NCBI GenBank assembly: GCA_964562615.1
Contig: CAZLUD010000001.1
Coordinates: 38,937 to 102,936, forward strand
Origin: an uncultured Candidatus Saccharibacteria bacterium
Lineage (GTDB): Bacteria > Patescibacteriota > Minisyncoccia > Phycocordibacterales > UBA12088
Direction of reading: 5' to 3'
Length of the DNA stretch: 64,000 bases
Shown piece after piece: positions 2,608-62,227 of the stretch. Each line of letters begins with the position of its first letter. The stretch's first letter is position 1. The notes beneath the pieces are model-generated. The model had not been told where the DNA came from, made no database searches, and worked only from the letters and a program-made list of their open reading frames with translations. Made by a program: the position numbers and the translations under genes.

Positions 2608-3861
2608 TTACTCTCCAAATGATGCGCGTTGGCGCTTTTTTCTGTGCCACTCTATAGCAAATCGGTGTGCCTCGGCATTCGCTAAAATAATTGCTCGATC
2701 AATTGATGCTATTGCAGAGAGAGCAGGCGGCATGATGCCGATTATTTCTTTTGCTTTGTGATGCTCATCTTTTGTCACTGCAACAACAGGTATTTCATAG
2801 CCAAACGACGCAAGCACCTTTTGTGCCACACTCAGTTGTGCCTTAGCTCCATCTACAACCACCAATGTTGGGAGTCGCCACTCATGGTGAGTACATCGTC
2901 GCTCCAACACCTGCTTTAATGCACCCGTATCATCCGCACTTGTTATGCCGTTTATAATAAATTTTCTGTACTCAGTTTTTTGCACCTCCCCATTTTCAAC
3001 CACGGTCATAACTCCGACCATTTCCTTTCCTGAGGTGTGCGCAATGTCATACGCCTCAATGCGCACGGATGAGCCTGGCTCGTACAATGCTTCTCGCTTG
3101 ATAAGTGAAATGTCCCGTATGTGTTTAAGTGCGTATAGCTGGCGCTTTCGCTCCCCTGCTCGTTCAAACAACTCAGCATGTGCATACTCTTCCATCTCTT
3201 TGCTTAGTCTATCCAAGAGCTGTTTCTTCTTTCCTGAAAACAGAAGAATAATGTGTCGAATTGTTTTTGCATACTCACGCACACCATCGGCATCACTTTT
3301 TGGATATATACCTAATGATTGATAAAAGGCAATTTTGCCCTTTTCTGTCTTTGATGTAGCACTACCAACTGGATGCTTGGTATCAAAGAATGGAAAAATC
3401 TTTCTTATGAGTAGCAACGCTTCGGTTAGCTGATTTCCATACGGAAATGGTCCAAAAAGCTTTTTGATTTCTGATTTTTTAAATGCAGTAGACAAATCTT
3501 TTCCGCGTACCTTAAGCACTCGTGGAAATGCTTCATTGGTAATCACCACATAGTTATAGCTTTTATCATCCTTAAGGAGCGTGTTGTACTTTGGCTTATA
3601 GGTCTTAATTAAATTGGCTTCAAGGATAAGCGCTTCAAGCACTGAGTCTGTCGTACGATAATCTAGTATGTGTGCTTCTTCAACCATTTTTACAATGGTT
3701 GGACTTCTGCTTTCCACTAAATCCTTTGCGAAATAGCTTTTTGTTCGATCTTTTAGCGATGTTGCCTTACCTATGTACAACACCTTTTTTTGCTTATTAA
3801 GAAAAAAGTACACCCCTGGTGTTTGCGGTATATTTTTATTTTTTAGATATTCCTTTTGCAT
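2608..3861 (-). CDS. uvrC: Excinuclease ABC subunit C, short form (417 aa)
   Basis: N-terminal GIY-YIG motif (PGVYFFLNK...VLYIGKATSLKDRTKSYF) and a C-terminal RNase-H-like endonuclease region (LVVVDGAKAQL...). It lacks the long UvrB-interaction/HhH extension of canonical ~600 aa UvrC. Lies in an operon-like block with uvrA and uvrB. Confidence 0.8.
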   Translation of the reverse strand: MQKEYLKNKNIPQTPGVYFFLNKQKKVLYIGKATSLKDRTKSYFAKDLVESRSPTIVKMVEEAHILDYRTTDSVLEALILEANLIKTYKPKYNTLLKDDKSYNYVVITNEAFPRVLKVRGKDLSTAFKKSEIKKLFGPFPYGNQLTEALLLIRKIFPFFDTKHPVGSATSKTEKGKIAFYQSLGIYPKSDADGVREYAKTIRHIILLFSGKKKQLLDRLSKEMEEYAHAELFERAGERKRQLYALKHIRDISLIKREALYEPGSSVRIEAYDIAHTSGKEMVGVMTVVENGEVQKTEYRKFIINGITSADDTGALKQVLERRCTHHEWRLPTLVVVDGAKAQLSVAQKVLASFGYEIPVVAVTKDEHHKAKEIIGIMPPALSAIASIDRAIILANAEAHRFAIEWHRKKRQRASFGE

Positions 3862-40201: not shown

Positions 40202-40221
40202 TAATCGTGGCTGTCCCTATT
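40202..40221. repeat. 20 bp direct repeat taatcgtgGctgtccctatt, copy 1 (copy 2 at 42204-42223 with one mismatch)
   Basis: Read directly. Both copies are intergenic and flank a ~2 kb three-gene segment. Confidence 0.55.
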
Positions 40222-40318
40222 TTCTACCCTATTCGCTACTGGTCGTCTGATGCAAAGAATAACTGGGTATGTTTAAAGAAGAGACCCCATCCTACGATGG
40301 GGTTTAAGTTAGCCGTGA

Positions 40319-40768
40319 TCATTCGCTAGATGCATGAGTAACGATGGCATCATAAATATTGTCCTCCTTCAAAACAATTTGTTGCGCATATACTATACCC
40401 CTTGGGAGATAGTTGGGGTGATAGAAACGTAGCTGACCTTGATCAGCGCTCAGATCCTCCGGAATACTTGAGAGAATTCGAATATCGATAGTCGATTGAG
40501 GTGACTCGGATACATCATTCCCTTGGCCTACAATTCGTTTTGTTCGCTGTATTGCTACAATCTTATCTGTACTCAACATTTTATTGAGAACACTAATCAG
40601 ATCGGAACTGTCTTTGAACCTTCGAGTGAAGTGAGTCTCTAACTCTTTCATAGTGACCCCTAGATGGCCATTGCCACCACAGGTCTGGTGATTCCGCTGT
40701 CGACGCTCTTTGTAAACGATAATTACTGCCGAAAGAAACTTCTGTTTCGAGGCAAGTGTACCAGTCAT
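40319..40768 (-). CDS. Hypothetical protein (149 aa), compositionally distinct (GC-richer codons)
   Basis: ORF track; no family recognised. Confidence 0.4.
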   Translation of the reverse strand: MTGTLASKQKFLSAVIIVYKERRQRNHQTCGGNGHLGVTMKELETHFTRRFKDSSDLISVLNKMLSTDKIVAIQRTKRIVGQGNDVSESPQSTIDIRILSSIPEDLSADQGQLRFYHPNYLPRGIVYAQQIVLKEDNIYDAIVTHASSE

Positions 40769-41022
40769 CCAACGCTCCTCCAGTTGGTCTACTTACAGTA
40801 AATACAATTTAGGCAATTAATTCAAGGTGTGTATGTCGCAAGGTGCTGAATCATGACTATCAGCATTTTTCATTTCCGAAGAAATAATAGTGCCTGTCCA
40901 TACAATTTCTGCCTTGGTGAAGAGCTTGATTTAATACATTTCTATATATATCCTATATAGTGGTTGTGAACTAAAAACTACTCACAGTTTGCAACAACCT
41001 AACCAGTCTGGGAGAAACGTCA

Positions 41023-41556
41023 ATGCATCTACAAGTGTCTAACCCCGACCCCCACAAGGTCACACGACTCAGCGAAGACACAATCCCCTCAGTAAAGGGA
41101 GAGTGGTATAACTACCGCTCTGTATTCACACCAATGCGACCGCTTGGCTACCTCATGAAGTGCAAGGCGAACAAGGACAGGCCATTGTGTTTCGTTGAGG
41201 AGAACGATGGTGTCGACATAACCTTTGTGTTCGACGAGGAGGTTGTTCAGGTTTGCTCACCAGACTCGGAGCACTCCCTGAAGATGATGGCTGGCCGAGT
41301 TGACCCTAAAACTCTCAAGAAGGTCAACTTCGTTCAAACATCTCTAACCAAAGTGCAGTTTGACGCTATTCGAATAGGTAAAGATGTTGTCAGTCTACTC
41401 ACGGTGTGCCAGAGCGGATCGGTGGCAAATTGTTTGCTAGTAACGAAGGGTATAATTCTGGCTATCAAAACGCAAGCAGGGATATACTGCTTGATGCGAG
41501 CTACAGAGGTAAACCCTCACAAGGTATGCTTTGATGCATGCCACATACTTCTCTAG
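41023..41556 (+). CDS. Hypothetical protein (177 aa), GC-richer codon usage than its surroundings
   Basis: ORF track. Third-position G/C-rich codons (ccc, gac, aag, gtc) contrast with neighbouring AT-rich genes. No family recognised. Confidence 0.45.
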   Translation: MHLQVSNPDPHKVTRLSEDTIPSVKGEWYNYRSVFTPMRPLGYLMKCKANKDRPLCFVEENDGVDITFVFDEEVVQVCSPDSEHSLKMMAGRVDPKTLKKVNFVQTSLTKVQFDAIRIGKDVVSLLTVCQSGSVANCLLVTKGIILAIKTQAGIYCLMRATEVNPHKVCFDACHILL

Positions 41557-41582
41557 AATTACTTTCAGCACACAGCTCTGCC

Positions 41583-41614
41583 GAGAAATCTCTCGGCAGA
41601 GCTGCAAGTCTTTA
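41583..41614 (+). terminator. 14 bp perfect hairpin cagctctgccgaga/tctcggcagagctg downstream of the 41023..41556 gene
   Basis: Perfect inverted repeat with a 4 nt loop. No T-tract follows. Confidence 0.45.
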
Positions 41615-41687
41615 GAATAATTGTTGAGTAATAGCAATAAAGTTATACTCAGTAATACTTTTTTAAACTAAATTAAGTAAATAAATT

Positions 41688-42158
41688 ATGCATATACGAG
41701 AATTTGAAAAAAATGACCAGGAAGCTGTAGAAAAAATATTTGCCTTATATTGGACAGACCCAGAGTTTCTTAAAGAGCTTTCAGATGAATTGGAATCGTA
41801 TATCCAAATACACCAACATAGTGAGTCTGGTTTCTTTGTTGCTGAAAAAAATGCGGAGATTTTAGGAATAGTCGGTTTTAAGAAATTGCCTGATTACCTA
41901 AAACCATTTGCAAAAACCAGTAGGCCTGTTGAGTTTTATATTATTGCTGTGAAGAATAAAAGAGCTGGCGTAGGAAAGATCTTGAAATCAAGACTAATTG
42001 AAGAAGCGTATAAATCTGGTTTTAGTGAGATTCTTCTGTATAGTCCAGGTTCTCACAATGAATCCTGGAAATTTCATGACATTCTAGGTTTTGAAAGAGT
42101 TGGAGAGGTGACTCCCCCAGAAGATGATATTGGACACGTCTGGCGAAAGATTCTGTAG
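41688..42158 (+). CDS. GNAT-family N-acetyltransferase
   Basis: FYIIAVKNKRAGVGKILKSRLIEEAYKSGFSEILLY matches the acetyl-CoA-binding motif A of GNATs. The gene and its upstream region are very AT-rich. Confidence 0.7.
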   Translation: MHIREFEKNDQEAVEKIFALYWTDPEFLKELSDELESYIQIHQHSESGFFVAEKNAEILGIVGFKKLPDYLKPFAKTSRPVEFYIIAVKNKRAGVGKILKSRLIEEAYKSGFSEILLYSPGSHNESWKFHDILGFERVGEVTPPEDDIGHVWRKIL

Positions 42159-42202
42159 ATGCTTTCTATGGGCAGGTCAGGACCCATTCTTCACTTGTAT
42201 AT

Positions 42203-42757
42203 TTAATCGTGACTGTCCCTATTCCCTCTCTTCTGAATCTTTTTTCCAATTTCTTTTAAATCCCTCAAGAAAACATTCTTATTGTTTACCATCCTATAGG
42301 AGTTTGGATGTTTGATGCAGAATACGTGTTTGAAACTTGGAAATGTGGGGAGGAAAAGTTTCTCTGTATTTTTTCCAATACATAGAATCGAAGTAGTTTC
42401 CTTCACCCCGAGAATTTTAAATTGCTTTTCCAAACTCTTAATATTATCTCTCATAAATTTTCCATCCTTCTCTTTCCATTTCCGAATTACAATCCCAGAT
42501 TTTGGTTCAGGACAAAATATAAGATCGGTCATGTATGAACCTAGAAATGGCGACCTTGAAAATCCTTCTAAATACCATTTGTCAAAACGATGTCCAACTT
42601 TGTGATAATTCTCTCCAAACTTAATCACCGCAGCGGGATTGAGACCAATTATGACAATTCGGCAATGCAATAATTTTGTAGTTTTCCTGGGATCAAATGG
42701 CCAAATCGCAAACGATGCCGTTGTAAATTGTTTCAGTTTTTTAAGTTTTTCTTTCAT
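42203..42757 (-). CDS. Uracil-DNA-glycosylase-superfamily-like protein (Mug/TDG-like motifs)
   Basis: HCRIVIIGLNPA resembles UDG motif 1 (GINPG), and CIKHPNSY resembles motif 2 (HPSP). Low-moderate confidence. Confidence 0.35.
   Translation of the reverse strand: MKEKLKKLKQFTTASFAIWPFDPRKTTKLLHCRIVIIGLNPAAVIKFGENYHKVGHRFDKWYLEGFSRSPFLGSYMTDLIFCPEPKSGIVIRKWKEKDGKFMRDNIKSLEKQFKILGVKETTSILCIGKNTEKLFLPTFPSFKHVFCIKHPNSYRMVNNKNVFLRDLKEIGKKIQKRGNRDSHD
42204..42223. repeat. 20 bp direct repeat taatcgtgActgtccctatt, copy 2
   Basis: 19/20 identity to 40202-40221. Confidence 0.55.
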
Positions 42758-42808
42758 ATAAAATTTGGGTCATGGAGGAAACAGGGACGACATCCGAACT
42801 ACACTTTT

Positions 42809-43450
42809 TTAGTTATTCAATACTTCTCTTAAGGCCATGTCTACTCGTTTAAACGTAAAGTAAAATCCTTTTACAAAATCATCCTTTGCAAAATCTTCAA
42901 GGCCTGGAATACATCTTTTTTCAGCAGATAGCTTTGGATCAAGCTGGACGTTTATATCAAAAGGATGACATCCACCTTCATAGAGACTATATCCTAAATT
43001 GTAATAATATTCAGCTCCAGTAGCCATTGTATTCAAGTCCTCACGAATTTCCTCGCCAAGAACCACTTCAATGCGAGGTATAACGTTATAGTAGTTATCA
43101 AGTGCGAGTCTTAATTTTTCTAACCGACTTCTAAAGGCACTATCAGTCCAGTGCCTCTTATCCGGGAATTTGGGTTCGCCTTCTGAATCCCAAACAATCC
43201 CCCCTCTTAGTGCCGTCTCTTCAACGTTAATATCGGTTGTTTTAACTAAAGCTAGAACGTCACGAAGGTCGTATATTGCAACAAGCGCATCTCTTGCAAC
43301 ATTGTATTTATCTAAACCTCTTGTTTCTTCATACCAAACATTTAGAGCCAGAAAGGCTATAGCAACTAGTATCCCTTGGAGAAATACATTTATCCATACT
43401 GCAATTGAGTCGGTCTTTATTGCTTTTAGTTTTCTTAAAAAATTTCTCAT
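42809..43450 (-). CDS. Hypothetical membrane-anchored protein (213 aa)
   Basis: ORF track; one N-terminal transmembrane helix; no family recognised. Confidence 0.4.
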   Translation of the reverse strand: MRNFLRKLKAIKTDSIAVWINVFLQGILVAIAFLALNVWYEETRGLDKYNVARDALVAIYDLRDVLALVKTTDINVEETALRGGIVWDSEGEPKFPDKRHWTDSAFRSRLEKLRLALDNYYNVIPRIEVVLGEEIREDLNTMATGAEYYYNLGYSLYEGGCHPFDINVQLDPKLSAEKRCIPGLEDFAKDDFVKGFYFTFKRVDMALREVLNN

Positions 43451-43696
43451 TACTAGGTGTTATTCTTACCAACCATGCAGGGATAATGGGGACTGGGACA
43501 ATATTCAAGCAAATATCGTGTCCTAATTACTCTTCGGTCTTCCCACTCCCAGCTACTGCAACTCGAGCTGTTCTTGGCATAAATATATTAATATCACACT
43601 TTATTTGATTTTATTGTCCTTGTCCTTATTTCTATCTTAAGGCTCCTTTTTGTTTTGCTTCCTTCGCTTTGTCTAAGAGTTTTTGCAAATCCATAT

Positions 43697-43945
43697 TTAC
43701 TTGAATTTAAGCTTGTCTCCGAAGAACCACAAAAAGAAAGCTGCGCCAGCAAAAAAGTAGGCGGCTTCAGTATATCCTAAAACTTCCGCACCTATGGCTA
43801 AAAATAAACTTACTATCCAATAGAAACCAAGGTCTTTGTGAGCGTTGTGTGCTCCGCCAGAATAAATACTGATAATAATTATGCCTAAAATTCCAAGAAC
43901 TATGTAGTTAAGAATCATGGTGTAAATTATAACCCCTCCAATCAA
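43697..43945 (-). CDS. Small membrane protein (82 aa, three predicted transmembrane helices)
   Basis: ORF track; hydrophobic throughout. Confidence 0.35.
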   Translation of the reverse strand: MIGGVIIYTMILNYIVLGILGIIIISIYSGGAHNAHKDLGFYWIVSLFLAIGAEVLGYTEAAYFFAGAAFFLWFFGDKLKFK

Positions 43946-44378
43946 GTTGTCCCTTGTAAGACGCTGCCGGGAAGTTATTTGAACTGGAGTTGATCTGTAC
44001 GATTATTTGAGCAATTCCAACAATTATTGAAATAATGATTGCCGCAATAGCTATTCGAGTAGCACGTTTACCACCTTCTTGTGCCATTTTTAGCTCCAAA
44101 TAGTCGACCGCAGCGGCAATACCTTGAGCGCTTAAATAATATACTTCCCGAAGCTTGCGGCCTTTAGGAAGAAATTCTTCGGAAATGATCCAGATTAGTG
44201 GAGCATTTCCATTTAGTCCGTTGAAAAACATCCAATGAATCCACGTCCATTCCTCATCAGACAAATTAAGAGCGTCTTTCATTTCTGCTTCTGTAAAGCC
44301 TGTATGTTGTTTTTCATACGCCCACAGTAGCGTACGTACGTAGATAGATTTTTCTGGTTTTACATCCATAATCCCCAT
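43908..44378 (-). CDS. Hypothetical protein with a C-terminal transmembrane helix
   Basis: ORF track 43908..44489. Start moved to the internal MGIMDV because the upstream part overlaps the inverted tRNA-fragment hairpin. Uncertain. Confidence 0.3.
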   Translation of the reverse strand: MGIMDVKPEKSIYVRTLLWAYEKQHTGFTEAEMKDALNLSDEEWTWIHWMFFNGLNGNAPLIWIISEEFLPKGRKLREVYYLSAQGIAAAVDYLELKMAQEGGKRATRIAIAAIIISIIVGIAQIIVQINSSSNNFPAASYKGQLDWRGYNLHHDS

Positions 44379-44535
44379 TGTATCGTTTTGGACAGATTTG
44401 CTAAGCGACGCGACTTGAGCGCGAGAACCTATCACGACTTGGCTGCCGAACCTCAAATCTTCACTCCTTGGAAACCCACGGTTTTCCATAGCCTTCCTTC
44501 ACGGGAAAACAGCTGTTTTCCCGACCCCTTTCGCG

Positions 44536-44552
44536 TTCGAATCCAAGTCCGA
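44536..44552 (+). repeat. Inverted 17 nt copy of the tRNA-Gln 3' end (gttcgaatccaagtccg) 26 nt beyond the tRNA 3' terminus
   Basis: The reverse complement is identical to tRNA positions 51-67 (T-loop to acceptor). It forms a long hairpin with the tRNA 3' half. Confidence 0.55.
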
Positions 44553-44574
44553 CATCGCTCATTTCATTCGCTAG

Positions 44575-44645
44575 CTGCCGGACTTGGATTCGAACCAAGA
44601 TACACGCCTCCAAAGGGCGTAGTCCTACCATTAGACGATCCGGCA
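44575..44645 (-). tRNA. tRNA-Gln (anticodon UUG)
   Basis: Reverse complement TGCCGGATCGTCTAATGGTAGGACTACGCCCTTTGGAGGCGTGTATCTTGGTTCGAATCCAAGTCCGGCAG folds as a cloverleaf with anticodon loop CTTTGGA, U1:A72 and G73 (Gln identity). CCA is not encoded. Confidence 0.85.
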
Positions 44646-59845: not shown

Positions 59846-59928
59846 GCTGGGGTGGCGGAATGGTAGACGCGATTGACTCAAAATCAATTGCCCGAAAGGG
59901 TGTGAGGGTTCAAGTCCCTCCTCCAGCA
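59846..59928 (+). tRNA. tRNA-Leu (anticodon CAA), type II with a long variable arm
   Basis: GCTGGGGTGGCGGAATGGTAGACGCGATTGACTCAAAATCAATTGCCCGAAAGGGTGTGAGGGTTCAAGTCCCTCCTCCAGCA. Anticodon loop CTCAAAA, long variable stem-loop, discriminator A. CCA not encoded. Confidence 0.85.
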
Positions 59929-59951
59929 CAAACGAGTGAAGCGAGTGTAGT

Positions 59952-60053
59952 ACTGGAGGAGAACAGTACCTTCGTACTGTTCGTAGGGACTTGCACCACA
60001 AGAGTATTTCCATTTTACTAACTCACTTTGTTCGTAAGTAAAATTGGTCATGA
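59952..60053 (+). repeat. Repeat unit R1 of a tRNA-Leu-associated repeat family (~100 nt)
   Basis: The core (gggacttgcaccacaagagtatttccattttactaactcactttgttcgtaagtaaaattggtcatgacc) aligns with R2 and R3. It carries the hairpin aacagtaccttcgtactgtt, which is also present with compensatory changes in R3. Confidence 0.6.
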
Positions 60054-60115
60054 CCGGAGCCTTATCGAGCGAATGCGAGATGGCGAGGTCCGACCTAATT
60101 TTTACGACCGTAGGG

Positions 60116-60147
60116 AGATAAAAATGGAAGTACCCTTGTGGCCGACC
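60116..60147 (-). repeat. Partial inverted copy (R4) of the repeat core (agataaaaatggaagtacccttgtggccgacc)
   Basis: Reverse complement matches the ccacaagggcatttccattttt core of R1/R2. Confidence 0.45.
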
Positions 60148-60186
60148 AGCGTTCTTATGAGCGAAGCGAATTAGCAAAAGCGTGTC

Positions 60187-60202
60187 AGTCCCTCCTCCAG
60201 CA
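60187..60202 (+). repeat. 16 nt exact direct repeat of the tRNA-Leu 3' end (agtccctcctccagca)
   Basis: Identical to 59913-59928 in the same orientation, 259 bp downstream of the tRNA. Confidence 0.6.
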
Positions 60203-60250
60203 CCATGAACAAAGGAGTCAGAAGCGGAGCTTTTGACGACTATTGTGAAT

Positions 60251-60330
60251 TGCTGGAGGAGGGACTTGTACCACAAGGGCATTTCCATTTTTCTAACTCG
60301 CGTTGCTCGTAAGTAAAATTGGTCATCGCC
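60251..60330 (+). repeat. Repeat unit R2; it begins with an inverted 18 nt copy of the tRNA-Leu 3' end (tgctggaggagggacttg)
   Basis: About 85% identical to R1 and R3 over ~70 nt; 37 nt identical to R3. Confidence 0.6.
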
Positions 60331-60497
60331 GTAGGCGGTCTACGATTTTGCGAAATGAAGTGAAGCAAAATTGTCGCCGAGCTGGGGTCGAGAGTGCTTA
60401 GTGGTTTAGAACGTAGTGAATAAACTACTTAGCAACTCGTGACCAAGTCCTCCAACACTCAAGAAATATAGCCAAAAATCTCAACAAGTATATTTAC

Positions 60498-60803
60498 TTA
60501 TTTTGATTTATTTTGATTTTCTTCTCGTGCCAGGCGCGTAGATAGATCAGCAAGTTCTTTTTGCGCTTGTGCTGCCTTTCTTTTGAAATCTTCTATTTGC
60601 TTTTTAATTGTTTCTGCCTCTTGATCCTTGCGCTCAAGTATTCTTTTCATTCTTTCTATGTCACCTTCCTTTCTTTTTATTTCTTCCTCATCCTTTTTAA
60701 TTTCAGCTTCTTTTTTTGTTAATTCTGAATTCAGTCTTTCTTCTTGCTTTTCAAGATTTTCTATCTCTCTTTCTGTTTGTTGTATTAATTGTTCTATGGC
60801 CAT
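60498..60803 (-). CDS. Small coiled-coil protein (101 aa, E/K-rich)
   Basis: ORF track; heptad-rich with no transmembrane helix. Flanked by the repeat family. Confidence 0.45.
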   Translation of the reverse strand: MAIEQLIQQTEREIENLEKQEERLNSELTKKEAEIKKDEEEIKRKEGDIERMKRILERKDQEAETIKKQIEDFKRKAAQAQKELADLSTRLAREENQNKSK

Positions 60804-60873
60804 AGGTATATTGGTCTAAGTGTATATTTAATAGTATACAAGCATTGCCTAAGAAGAAAAGTATGGAATACTC

Positions 60874-61773
60874 ATGTCAATGAGTAAGCAAAAAGCAATT
60901 GCCGTAGTGGGTCCAACTGCCTCAGGTAAAAGTGCCCTAGCTATAACCCTTGCAAAAGAGATACACGGAGAAGTTATCTCTGCTGATTCACGTCAGGTAT
61001 ATGAAGGATTTGATACCACCACCGCAAAGGTGACGCCGGAAGAAATGTTAGGTATTCCTCATCACTTACTAGATATTGCCCCTATTGAAAGAGAGTACAC
61101 CGTCGCAGACTTTGTACACGATGGAAAGGCGGCAATTACTAGTATCGCCGCAAAAGGTGCTATTCCTATTATTGCAGGTGGTACTGGATTTTATATAGAT
61201 GCACTGCTGTTTGGACAATCTTTACCCCAAGTACCACCAAACCAAGTGCTTCGTGCATCACTTACTACAATGACCACCGATACCCTTTTTGCCATGCTAC
61301 AAGCAAAGGATCCTCACAGAGCCGCTACAATTGAACAACAAAATAAGCAGCGCCTCATCAGAGCTCTTGAAATAGTAGACACACTTGGAGTAGTGCCTCC
61401 TCAAGCAACTATGAGCGACGCACCGTACGACACGCTATGGATAGGTATCCTGTGGCAGCGAGATGAGTTAATCCAGCGAATACACGAAAGGGTTTTACAC
61501 CGTGTAGATAATATGATTACAGAAATCAGCAATGAGAGGAATCGCCTCACCCCTCAAATTGCCTCACGTCTTGGCTTTGATTTTACCCTCACCCTTTCAT
61601 ACGTAGAGGGCGCAATGACAAAAGACGCACTTATAGATGCTCTTACACAAAAGGATGCTGCCTATGCCCGCAGACAGATGACGTGGTTTAAACGAAACAA
61701 GCAAATCACCTGGCTTTCGCCAGAAACACTTCCATCGTCTGCCATTGATCTTGCGCGGCGATTTCTTGCGTAG
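60874..61773 (+). CDS. miaA: tRNA dimethylallyltransferase
   Basis: AIAVVGPTASGKSALAITLA P-loop, SADSRQVY, and IAGGTGFY. Confidence 0.9.
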   Translation: MSMSKQKAIAVVGPTASGKSALAITLAKEIHGEVISADSRQVYEGFDTTTAKVTPEEMLGIPHHLLDIAPIEREYTVADFVHDGKAAITSIAAKGAIPIIAGGTGFYIDALLFGQSLPQVPPNQVLRASLTTMTTDTLFAMLQAKDPHRAATIEQQNKQRLIRALEIVDTLGVVPPQATMSDAPYDTLWIGILWQRDELIQRIHERVLHRVDNMITEISNERNRLTPQIASRLGFDFTLTLSYVEGAMTKDALIDALTQKDAAYARRQMTWFKRNKQITWLSPETLPSSAIDLARRFLA

Positions 61774-61800
61774 CTCGGCTAAAGAGTATCGTATTAACAC

Positions 61801-61821
61801 GACGATAGTAATTCTATCGTC
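61801..61821 (+). terminator. 8 bp hairpin gacgatag/ctatcgtc just after the miaA stop
   Basis: Inverted repeat read from the sequence; no T-tract, so confidence is low. Confidence 0.25.
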
Positions 61822-62002
61822 ACTGAAGCTTTGGCATGGCAAAGCTCAGCATATGCGATATCTGTGGCGGGCATTGCCACGCCGTTGCGTATGCGAAGGC
61901 GGGCCCACTCCGATTGGCGTCAGCTCACTAAGCACGTTGTGCTAAGTGGCTCCTGCCCGACCTCGCCTGTCGTGCTCGCTATGCTCCGCGCGACATGGCT
62001 CC

Positions 62003-62115
62003 GGTGCTGACCAATTTTTGTTACGAGCACTGCGAGTTAGAAAAATGGAAATGCCCTTGTGGTACGAGTCGGAACAAACAGCACGAAGGTGCTGTTTTGT
62101 GTTCCCTTCACTCGC
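62003..62115 (-). repeat. Repeat unit R3 (inverted orientation relative to R1/R2)
   Basis: Reverse complement aligns with the R1/R2 core. It contains the hairpin aacagcaccttcgtgctgtt, covarying with the R1 hairpin. Confidence 0.6.
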
Positions 62116-62227
62116 TAGACGCTCGTTGCGGGCCCACTCCGACTCGAACGGAGGACGCTGGTTTTGGAGACCAGAATTTTACCTCTAAACTATAGGCCCG
62201 TTATATTTGATTCCCTCAGGTGGCGTA

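Follow-up and report, generated by a model that had tools for sequence, protein, structure and literature searches.

Certain tyrosine transposase genes that resemble those of the REP-associated tyrosine transposases (RAYTs; REP, repetitive extragenic palindrome) have long terminal inverted repeats (TIRs) on their flanks, and not REP hairpins. These genes have been named TIRYTs, and the units in which they reside TIRtrons (Di Nocera 2013, BMC Genomics 14:522; PMC3733652). Many of the TIRs carry the motif GGGGWSAS, some overlap the end of the gene, and TIRs are also found as single, dimeric or grouped copies (PMC3733652). TIRYTs probably correspond to subclass 2.1 of the TnpA-Y1 transposases, which includes RAYT group 1 (Quentin 2018, PMC6006769), a group defined by Bertels et al. 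2017 (PMC5581495). Class 2 is marked by the signature 'Y---NP', and Parcubacteria are unmentioned in the 2018 TnpA-Y1 survey (PMC6006769). TIRYTs form a large, barely studied class of domesticated-looking HUH transposases, and in the literature searched the term is used by two works only, each of them computational. Here we analyze a 20-bp direct repeat in 64,000 nucleotides of an uncultured Candidatus Saccharibacteria bacterium (GenBank assembly GCA_964562615.1, contig CAZLUD010000001.1, positions 38,937 to 102,936 of the forward strand; this whole stretch is hereafter called the window), the sequence of which appears to be the end of a TIRYT-type element.

By sequence comparison, the 20-mer is identified as the sequence that forms the cognate ends of a family of Y1/HUH (TIRYT-type) genes abundant in Parcubacteria/Paceibacteria. 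This is indicated by its identity with the TIRs of that family, by their inverted arrangement, by the agreement of the variants in each pair, by the lack of a hairpin and by the additional existence of solo copies. The copies in the window are in our estimation, with a probability of about 0.8, solo TIR copies of such an element, the bracketing of three genes between them being a by-product of clustering and not the result of one cassette insertion. The window repeats would accordingly be regarded as an instance, hosted by the candidate phyla radiation (CPR), of a known but poorly studied type of system. What is new is a widespread Parcubacteria TIRYT family with sharply conserved ends of 20-24 nt, present as a matched pair for each gene copy, together with the finding that solo ends persist, can cluster and may come to serve a host gene as its 3' end. 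With both the 20-mer and the protein defined, the family is amenable to in vitro binding and cleavage tests.

Copies of the repeat in the window

As reported in a preliminary description of the window, the plus strand carries a pair of 20-mers that are identical at 19/20 positions. The 20-mer can also be written AATCGTGRCTGTCCCYATT, and the 24-mer form of the TIR ACGGAAATAGGGACAGTCACGATT. Together with their partial and degenerate relatives, the copies are as follows.

40202..40221, plus strand: copy 1, TAATCGTGGCTGTCCCTATT, between the hypothetical gene hyp149 and an SPFH gene (both on the minus strand); its minus strand reads AATAGGGACAGCCACGATTA
40227..40233, plus strand: half-repeat CCCTATT, 5 nt outside copy 1
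40848..40867, plus strand: degenerate copy GAATCATGACTATCAGCATT, 14/20, oriented as copies 1 and 2
40885..40904, plus strand: degenerate copy TAATAGTGCCTGTCCATACA, 15/20, oriented as copies 1 and 2
42204..42223, plus strand: copy 2, TAATCGTGACTGTCCCTATT, 20/20 against the consensus

At up to three mismatches, copies 1 and 2 were the only matches in the window. The expectation from dinucleotide-preserving shuffles is 0.02 matches, and none of 100 shuffles contained two, which bears out the earlier judgment that a chance match is improbable. Both copies, with the identical G/A difference between them, were recovered in independent assemblies from seven samples, namely in eight contigs that are 97-100% identical to the window and that all have the occupied arrangement. 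A coincidence of chance or low complexity, or an artefact of assembly, whose sole support is the short length of the repeat, is in view of these counts and this recurrence next to negligible as an explanation.

The two degenerate copies are both situated between hyp149 and the second hypothetical gene, hyp177, at a spacing of 37 nt, and only about 0.007 matches as good as the one at 40848-40867 are expected by chance in that intergenic stretch. Of the four copies in the window, two are thus good and two degenerate; all are direct, and all fall within 2 kb out of 64 kb. The half-repeat next to copy 1 resembles the (GTCCCTATTWCC)n sub-repeats that extend outward beside the repeats of intact elements elsewhere (contigs L118, L113, L108 and L114). 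When folded as single-stranded DNA the 20-mer alone has a minimum free energy of 0 kcal/mol, with z-scores in the window context of -0.8 to +0.7 against shuffles, and no GTAG or GTGG tag was found within its sequence. A hairpin or REP nature of the repeat was rejected on this absence of any fold, which is in keeping with a TIR but not with the hairpin of a REP.

A close relative, contig L127 (90.5% nucleotide identity to the window across hyp177 and the adjoining GNAT gene), has better preserved counterparts of both degenerate copies, i.e. ATAAAGTGACTGTCCCTATT with an exact 15-nt core at its positions 45-64 (corresponding to 40848-40867) and TAATTATGCCTGTCCCCACA at 110-129 (corresponding to 40885-40904). 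The L127 contig terminates in AAATGGTGAC, about 26 nt past the GNAT stop codon, which is the position of copy 2 in the window. Since L127 has these counterparts, the direct cluster of four copies would be older than the split between the two lineages. Homology between the window and L127 seemed to break off at exactly 40885, but this was rejected as a junction, since the alignment showed only a more diverged intergenic stretch there.

Occurrence of the 20-mer in other genomes

An exact scan with TAATCGTGNCTGTCCCTATT returned 18 metagenome contigs with one match apiece, which were reduced to 13 distinct contexts once duplicates had been merged, while the same scan of viral contigs gave zero matches. 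Four of the 13 contexts were coding, by coincidence, and belonged to unrelated genes: two of the radical-SAM type, where N-R-x-C-P-Y in the CxxxCxxC box is encoded by the motif, one with a RelA/SpoT domain and one for a helix-turn-helix (HTH) protein. The other nine were non-coding and unrelated to one another. In five of these nine (L108, L113, L114, L118 and L107/L115), a gene or gene remnant beginning with the residues MPRLARVDLG was found just downstream. The motif, in its minus-strand reading AATAGGGACAGTCACGATTA, lies about 17-30 nt upstream of this gene, and somewhat farther from the remnant in L107/L115, where the gene is reduced to 47 aa. On the far side of the motif each of the MPRLARVDLG loci has a different sequence. 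Copy 1 of the window is 19/20 identical to the sequence flanking the gene in L118, L114 and L119. Solo copies without an adjoining gene of this type were found in L102, L104, L105 and L106, and also within L121 and L125.

Genes or gene fragments for serine recombinases were observed roughly 100-400 bp from the motif in L113 and in L115/L107, in the latter case beside the 47-aa remnant. The surroundings of the TIRtron seem to be rich in mobile elements.

The Y1 transposase family and its matched ends

The complete MPRLARVDLG gene encodes a protein of 223-225 aa, in which residues 14-128 match the Pfam domain Y1_Tnp (IS200-like) with an E-value of 3e-15. The best NCBIfam model was that of the REP-associated tyrosine transposase (REP_Tyr_transpos), with scores of 65.3 and 66.8 bits that do not reach the cut-off of 80. 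The L118 protein contains both HWH, i.e. the HUH motif, and YVERNP, which corresponds to the 'Y---NP' signature. In the C-terminal part of about 100 aa, no Pfam HTH or DnaA_C match was found at E<=0.01. The family has at least 2452 homologues, and the named ones among them mostly bear the label Parcubacteria, Paceibacterota or Kaiserbacteria.

Seven Y1 genes were examined for their ends (those of L118, L114 and L119, two in L121 and two in L125), and all seven have an inverted partner of the repeat at the other end of the gene. Six of the TIR pairs align gap-free over 22-43 nt with 84-100% identity, five of them over 22-24 nt with 91-100%, while the seventh (L121 gene 1) aligns only with a one-base indel. 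In the intact elements the inverted partner overlaps or closely trails the stop codon. A relaxed motif search placed the 3' copy in L118 and L114 over the stop codon itself (AAA TCG TGA ctgtccctatt). The repeat variants, among them CAATCGTGACTGTCCCCATT, differ between genes and agree within pairs, as seen from the following forms.

L118, L114 and L119: AATCGTGACTGTCCC(T/C)ATT
L121 gene 1: AACCGTGACTGTCCC(C/G)GTT
L121 gene 2: AATGGTGGCTGACCCCATT
L125, both genes: CAATCGTGACTGTCCCCA(T/A)T

The exact variant of the window is found at the 5' side of the Y1 genes of L118, L114 and L119. Judging from these alignments, such matching within pairs is the behaviour expected of functional element ends. 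Outward of the TIRs there are partial (GTCCCTATTWCC)n sub-repeats, which have grown to about 180 bp in L114, and tandem upstream copies are found beside the Y1 genes of L121 and L125.

The L114 array (3560-3740 in the motif-oriented copy) consists of GGAAATGGGGAC(AG)-type units running outward from the 3' TIR, in which gene callers could yield a spurious open reading frame (ORF) rich in G, N, E and M. The Kaiserbacteria loci L121 and L125 (CP060229.1 and GCA_964481965.1) each contain two diverged TIRYT paralogues 3.5-4 kb apart, every paralogue having its own TIR variant. L125 has additional solo TIR copies between its two paralogues, and in L121 an IS3-type rve/HTH_Tnp_1 gene pair is located just upstream of the first.

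Comparison with described systems

The closest resemblance is to the TIRYT/TIRtron system. In the relatives, a RAYT-like Y1/HUH gene lies between long TIRs without hairpins, the 3' TIR may overlap the end of the gene, each gene has its own TIR variant, and TIRs occur away from the gene as single, paired or grouped copies. The GGGGWSAS motif is also shared: GGGGACAG, which fits it, is present at the 3' side in L114 and L119, in L125 and in L121 gene 1, and GGGGTCAG, with 8/8 matching positions, in L121 gene 2. AGGGACAG, matching at 7/8, is found in both copies of the window and at the 5' side in L118, L114 and L119. The differences are the host, which here belongs to the candidate phyla (Parcubacteria/Paceibacteria), and the content of the window, which has direct solo copies only and no TIRYT gene within its 64 kb. 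The host was placed as an uncultured Patescibacteria (Parcubacteria/Paceibacteria-like) genome on the basis of the genes flanking the locus and of public contigs encoding identical proteins. The Y1 family is considered a candidate member of subclass 2.1.

With the REP/REPIN-RAYT systems (Nunvar 2010; Bertels & Rainey 2011; Ton-Hoang 2012) the family shares a mostly low-copy Y1 gene, inverted short repeats that are also found extragenically and at gene ends, and REP_Tyr_transpos as the top-scoring NCBIfam model, although at 65-67 against the cut-off of 80. The repeat differs from REPs in being non-palindromic, with neither a hairpin nor a GTAG or GT[AG]G tag, and no high copy number was seen within the 64 kb. 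IS200/IS605 insertion sequences have a transposase of the same fold family (Pfam Y1_Tnp, HUH, catalytic Tyr), but their ends are sub-terminal hairpins without inverted repeats, whereas the ends described here are hairpin-free inverted repeats of 20-24 nt. Their transposases, moreover, are of about 130-150 aa and multi-copy, as compared to about 223 aa with Y---NP in the present family.

Genes around the copies

The genes and other features surrounding the copies in the window are listed below.

40284..40303, minus strand: terminator-like hairpin after hyp149, just upstream (in the minus-strand sense) of copy 1
40319..40768, minus strand: hyp149, between copy 1 and the degenerate copies
41023-41556, plus strand: hyp177, without a family match
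41688-42158, plus strand: GNAT acetyltransferase gene (Pfam E 1.6e-8; matches acetyltransferases only)
42203..42757, minus strand: gene of the uracil-DNA glycosylase (UDG) superfamily, 184 aa (Pfam PF03167, E 6e-10), the 3' end of which enters copy 2
44574..44645, minus strand: tRNA-Gln(ttg), marking the conserved dnaX-HisPhos-tRNA-Gln anchor

Copies 1 and 2 thus bracket hyp149, hyp177 and the GNAT gene, in the orientations given by the preliminary description. That both copies are intergenic, as was also stated there, holds for copy 1 and not for copy 2, which codes for the last six codons and the stop codon of the ORF at 42203-42757. hyp149 had no Pfam, PHROG or NCBIfam match and is essentially an orphan, with five proteins, its own product counted, at E<=1e-3 among 1.84 billion representatives.

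Public gene calls agree on the ORF of the UDG-superfamily gene, whose 3' end is read from the minus strand of copy 2 as AAT AGG GAC AGT CAC GAT TAA, i.e. N R D S H D stop. The minus strand of copy 1 encodes the same NRDSHD-stop, the lone mismatch between the copies being synonymous (AGC vs AGT). The UDG-family homologues, of 169-178 aa, vary in their tails, and 17 of them, with 43-67% identity to the window protein, stop 6-13 residues sooner. NRDSHD is therefore not a feature of the family, and from these alignments it is more likely that the gene reads into the repeat than that the repeat is a family tail. The idea that the repeat represents an orphan 3' end of a UDG-family gene was also dismissed, given that the tail is unconserved in the 17 homologues and that the motif is non-coding elsewhere. 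The closest homologues are 66% identical, and one of their contexts (L095) is partly syntenic with the window, with the order ClpB-Dus-dnaX...UDG. This context and the other closest one are too distant for a 20-bp feature to be resolved.

Origin of the copies and alternative explanations

Given that the window copies are solo TIRs, two origins can be envisaged. They may be relics of a resident TIRtron, the transposase gene of which was lost or replaced in a variable region, or a transposase whose gene is located elsewhere in the genome may have spread them in trans, in the way that RAYTs spread REPs; either would account for them. The UDG-family gene would then have received one copy at its 3' end, by landing or by fusion, and this copy would now supply it with a tail and a stop codon. 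With regard to location, the cluster is found in a variable stretch downstream of dnaX-HisPhos-tRNA-Gln(ttg), and in L118, a distant relative whose dnaX is 45% identical, the order is dnaX-HisPhos-tRNA-Gln(ttg)-one gene-TIR-Y1-TIR, the TIR closest to the tRNA being oriented, relative to it, like the copies in the window. A tRNA-Gln(ctg) precedes the element of L114 by 126 nt. Since other members of the Y1 family are not near tRNA-Gln, the link between TIRtron location and this tRNA is suggestive only.

A number of results weigh against the copies being TIRs of this kind. No Y1 gene was found in the 64-kb window (best tblastn E-value 0.13), so that a cognate enzyme in the host genome is only putative. 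All four window copies are direct, whereas the ends of intact elements are inverted, and the cluster is thus not a simple decayed TIRtron. Copies matching at 20/20 and 19/20 are also surprisingly intact for old relics that lie beside decayed neighbors, a preservation that hints at recent origin or at selection. The motif was furthermore not found, at up to three mismatches, in 1.45 Mb from 80 other Paceibacteria loci, indicating low copy number, with no sign of mass dispersal in the manner of REPs. Binding and cleavage of the TIR by the TIRYT protein is a prediction from sequence.

The original proposal for the repeat was that its two copies are attL/attR-like scars of a site-specific insertion. 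In its fuller form, a 2-kb element with hyp149, hyp177 and the GNAT gene would have integrated site-specifically at the 3' end of the UDG-family gene, duplicating a 20-bp core and regenerating the end of the gene. The locus does resemble those of elements targeting tRNA genes or gene 3' ends, in that the repeat is direct with 19/20 identity, copy 2 truly ends the UDG-family ORF, and both copies supply the NRDSHD-stop with a single, synonymous mismatch. We nevertheless find this explanation strongly disfavoured, to the point of being very improbable. No recombinase or integrase was found in or beside the segment, where hyp149 and hyp177 are without family and the neighbors are the SPFH and UDG-family genes. 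The NRDSHD tail is unconserved in the UDG family, and the 20-mer is not specific to the junctions, as it is found in nine unrelated non-coding contexts, as inverted repeats around Y1 genes, and as two further degenerate copies within the segment itself. The segment is compositionally mixed, with a GC content of 0.43 in hyp149, 0.48 in hyp177 and 0.365 in the GNAT gene. GC falls between hyp177 and the GNAT gene and stays low through copy 2, the UDG-family gene and hyp213 to about 44.3 kb, and a low-GC island bounded by the repeat was rejected because the GC drop and the repeat positions do not coincide. The hyp177-GNAT pair (41023..42158) is found in other Paceibacteria beside Nuc_deoxyrib_tr and NUDIX genes without the motif, its adjacency being kept in relatives despite the GC contrast, and elsewhere hyp177 pairs with a Peptidase_S66 gene that replaces the GNAT gene. 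The 90%-identical L127, for its part, retains the pair together with motif copies. Comparison of strains, which had been proposed as a check, showed no empty or excised form and no variant without the 2 kb among the eight same-species contigs. The SPFH gene, tried as an anchor for comparison, is more than 80% conserved in 80 species without shared synteny. The motif has essentially turned out to be a dispersed element unrelated to the genes that it brackets here, and the repeat should not be labelled as att sites of a three-gene island. The fallback offered in the preliminary description, a shared recombination site, came close to the truth, the 20-mer being, as far as sequence can tell, the cognate TIR of a Y1/HUH family. 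The same fallback named a shared regulatory site, and a protein-binding site common to several transcription units (e.g. an operator or a promoter element to which the Y1 protein binds through its C-terminal domain, or some other factor binds) would agree with the placement of the 5' copy in intact elements, 17-29 nt upstream of the ATG and beside -10-like sequences, e.g. TGGTATAAT. The AATAGGG...GATTA strand also runs in the sense of the adjoining gene for both window copies and in L102, L105 and L106, with L104 as the exception, and the SPFH ATG follows copy 1 at a distance of 84 nt, copy 1 being placed ahead of a promoter-like TTCACG-17-TATACT with an upstream TG. Copy 2, however, is at a convergent junction within a coding 3' end, and in intact elements the 3' copy, which overlaps the stop codon, is directed away from any gene. 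Agreement between the left and right inverted copies of a given gene is typical of element ends and not of operators. The number of hits in a promoter scan was not above that in shuffles and manual inspection revealed no consistent -35/-10 geometry across contexts, on which grounds a promoter was rejected. Regulation is compatible with a TIR origin and does not exclude it; as the explanation of the repeat it seems unlikely.

HUH enzymes cut both ends of their element on one strand, and direct copies are therefore substrates in principle. In the window a copy is followed by hyp149, the degenerate copies, the hyp177-GNAT pair, a further copy and the UDG-family gene, and it is conceivable, albeit decidedly improbable, that direct copies of a TIRYT recognition sequence delimit gene cassettes. 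A Y1/HUH enzyme acting on single strands would then cut at two such copies and rejoin the ends, by which the cassettes would be excised or inserted as single-stranded circles. Neither empty or excised variants nor a second motif-flanked context of the same cassette were seen. If true, this would amount to a HUH cassette-exchange system in reduced CPR genomes, with a hot spot downstream of tRNA-Gln. Solo TIR copies that have come to cluster remain our preferred explanation.

Other observations in the window

The UDG-family protein shares 66% identity with homologues from relatives in which ClpB, Dus and the dnaX product reach only 39-53% identity to those of the window, and in L095 its gene is likewise downstream of dnaX. 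This would point either to unusual conservation or to horizontal exchange. The gene is also part of a low-GC block at 41560-44300 (0.35-0.39 vs 0.44 for the window), which spans the GNAT gene, the UDG-family gene, hyp213 and hyp82.

Just upstream of hyp177, at 40962-40999, there is an imperfect inverted repeat, GGTTGTGAAC...GTTTGCAACAACC, which is kept in position and form (TTGTCAAC...GTTGACAA-like) upstream of the homologues in L127, L131, L132 and L133. The hyp177 gene family thus probably has an operator or a 5'-leader hairpin at this position.

At the tRNA-Gln(ttg) gene, the 3'-terminal 20 nt (44576-44595) recur inverted, with 19/20 identity, at 44535-44554, i.e. 21 nt downstream of the tRNA. 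This inverted copy would pair as a strong hairpin with the T-arm and acceptor strand of the tRNA, and could be a terminator built from a tRNA end or an old integration scar. Two independent Logan contigs, L001 and L003 (SRR12762283 and SRR12762285), both stop at 44643, inside the same tRNA gene, which suggests strain heterogeneity or an assembly-breaking repeat at this site.

Lastly, repeats also surround the tRNA-Leu(caa) and tRNA-Trp genes at 59846-62199. The 3' end of the tRNA-Leu (59913-59929) has an exact copy at 60187-60203 and an inverted one at 60251-60272, a 75-nt direct repeat links 59985-60059 with 60260-60334 (87%), and a 72-nt inverted repeat links 60263-60334 with 61999-62070 (89%). 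These may represent a tRNA-targeting element or duplicated modules flanking the tRNA genes.

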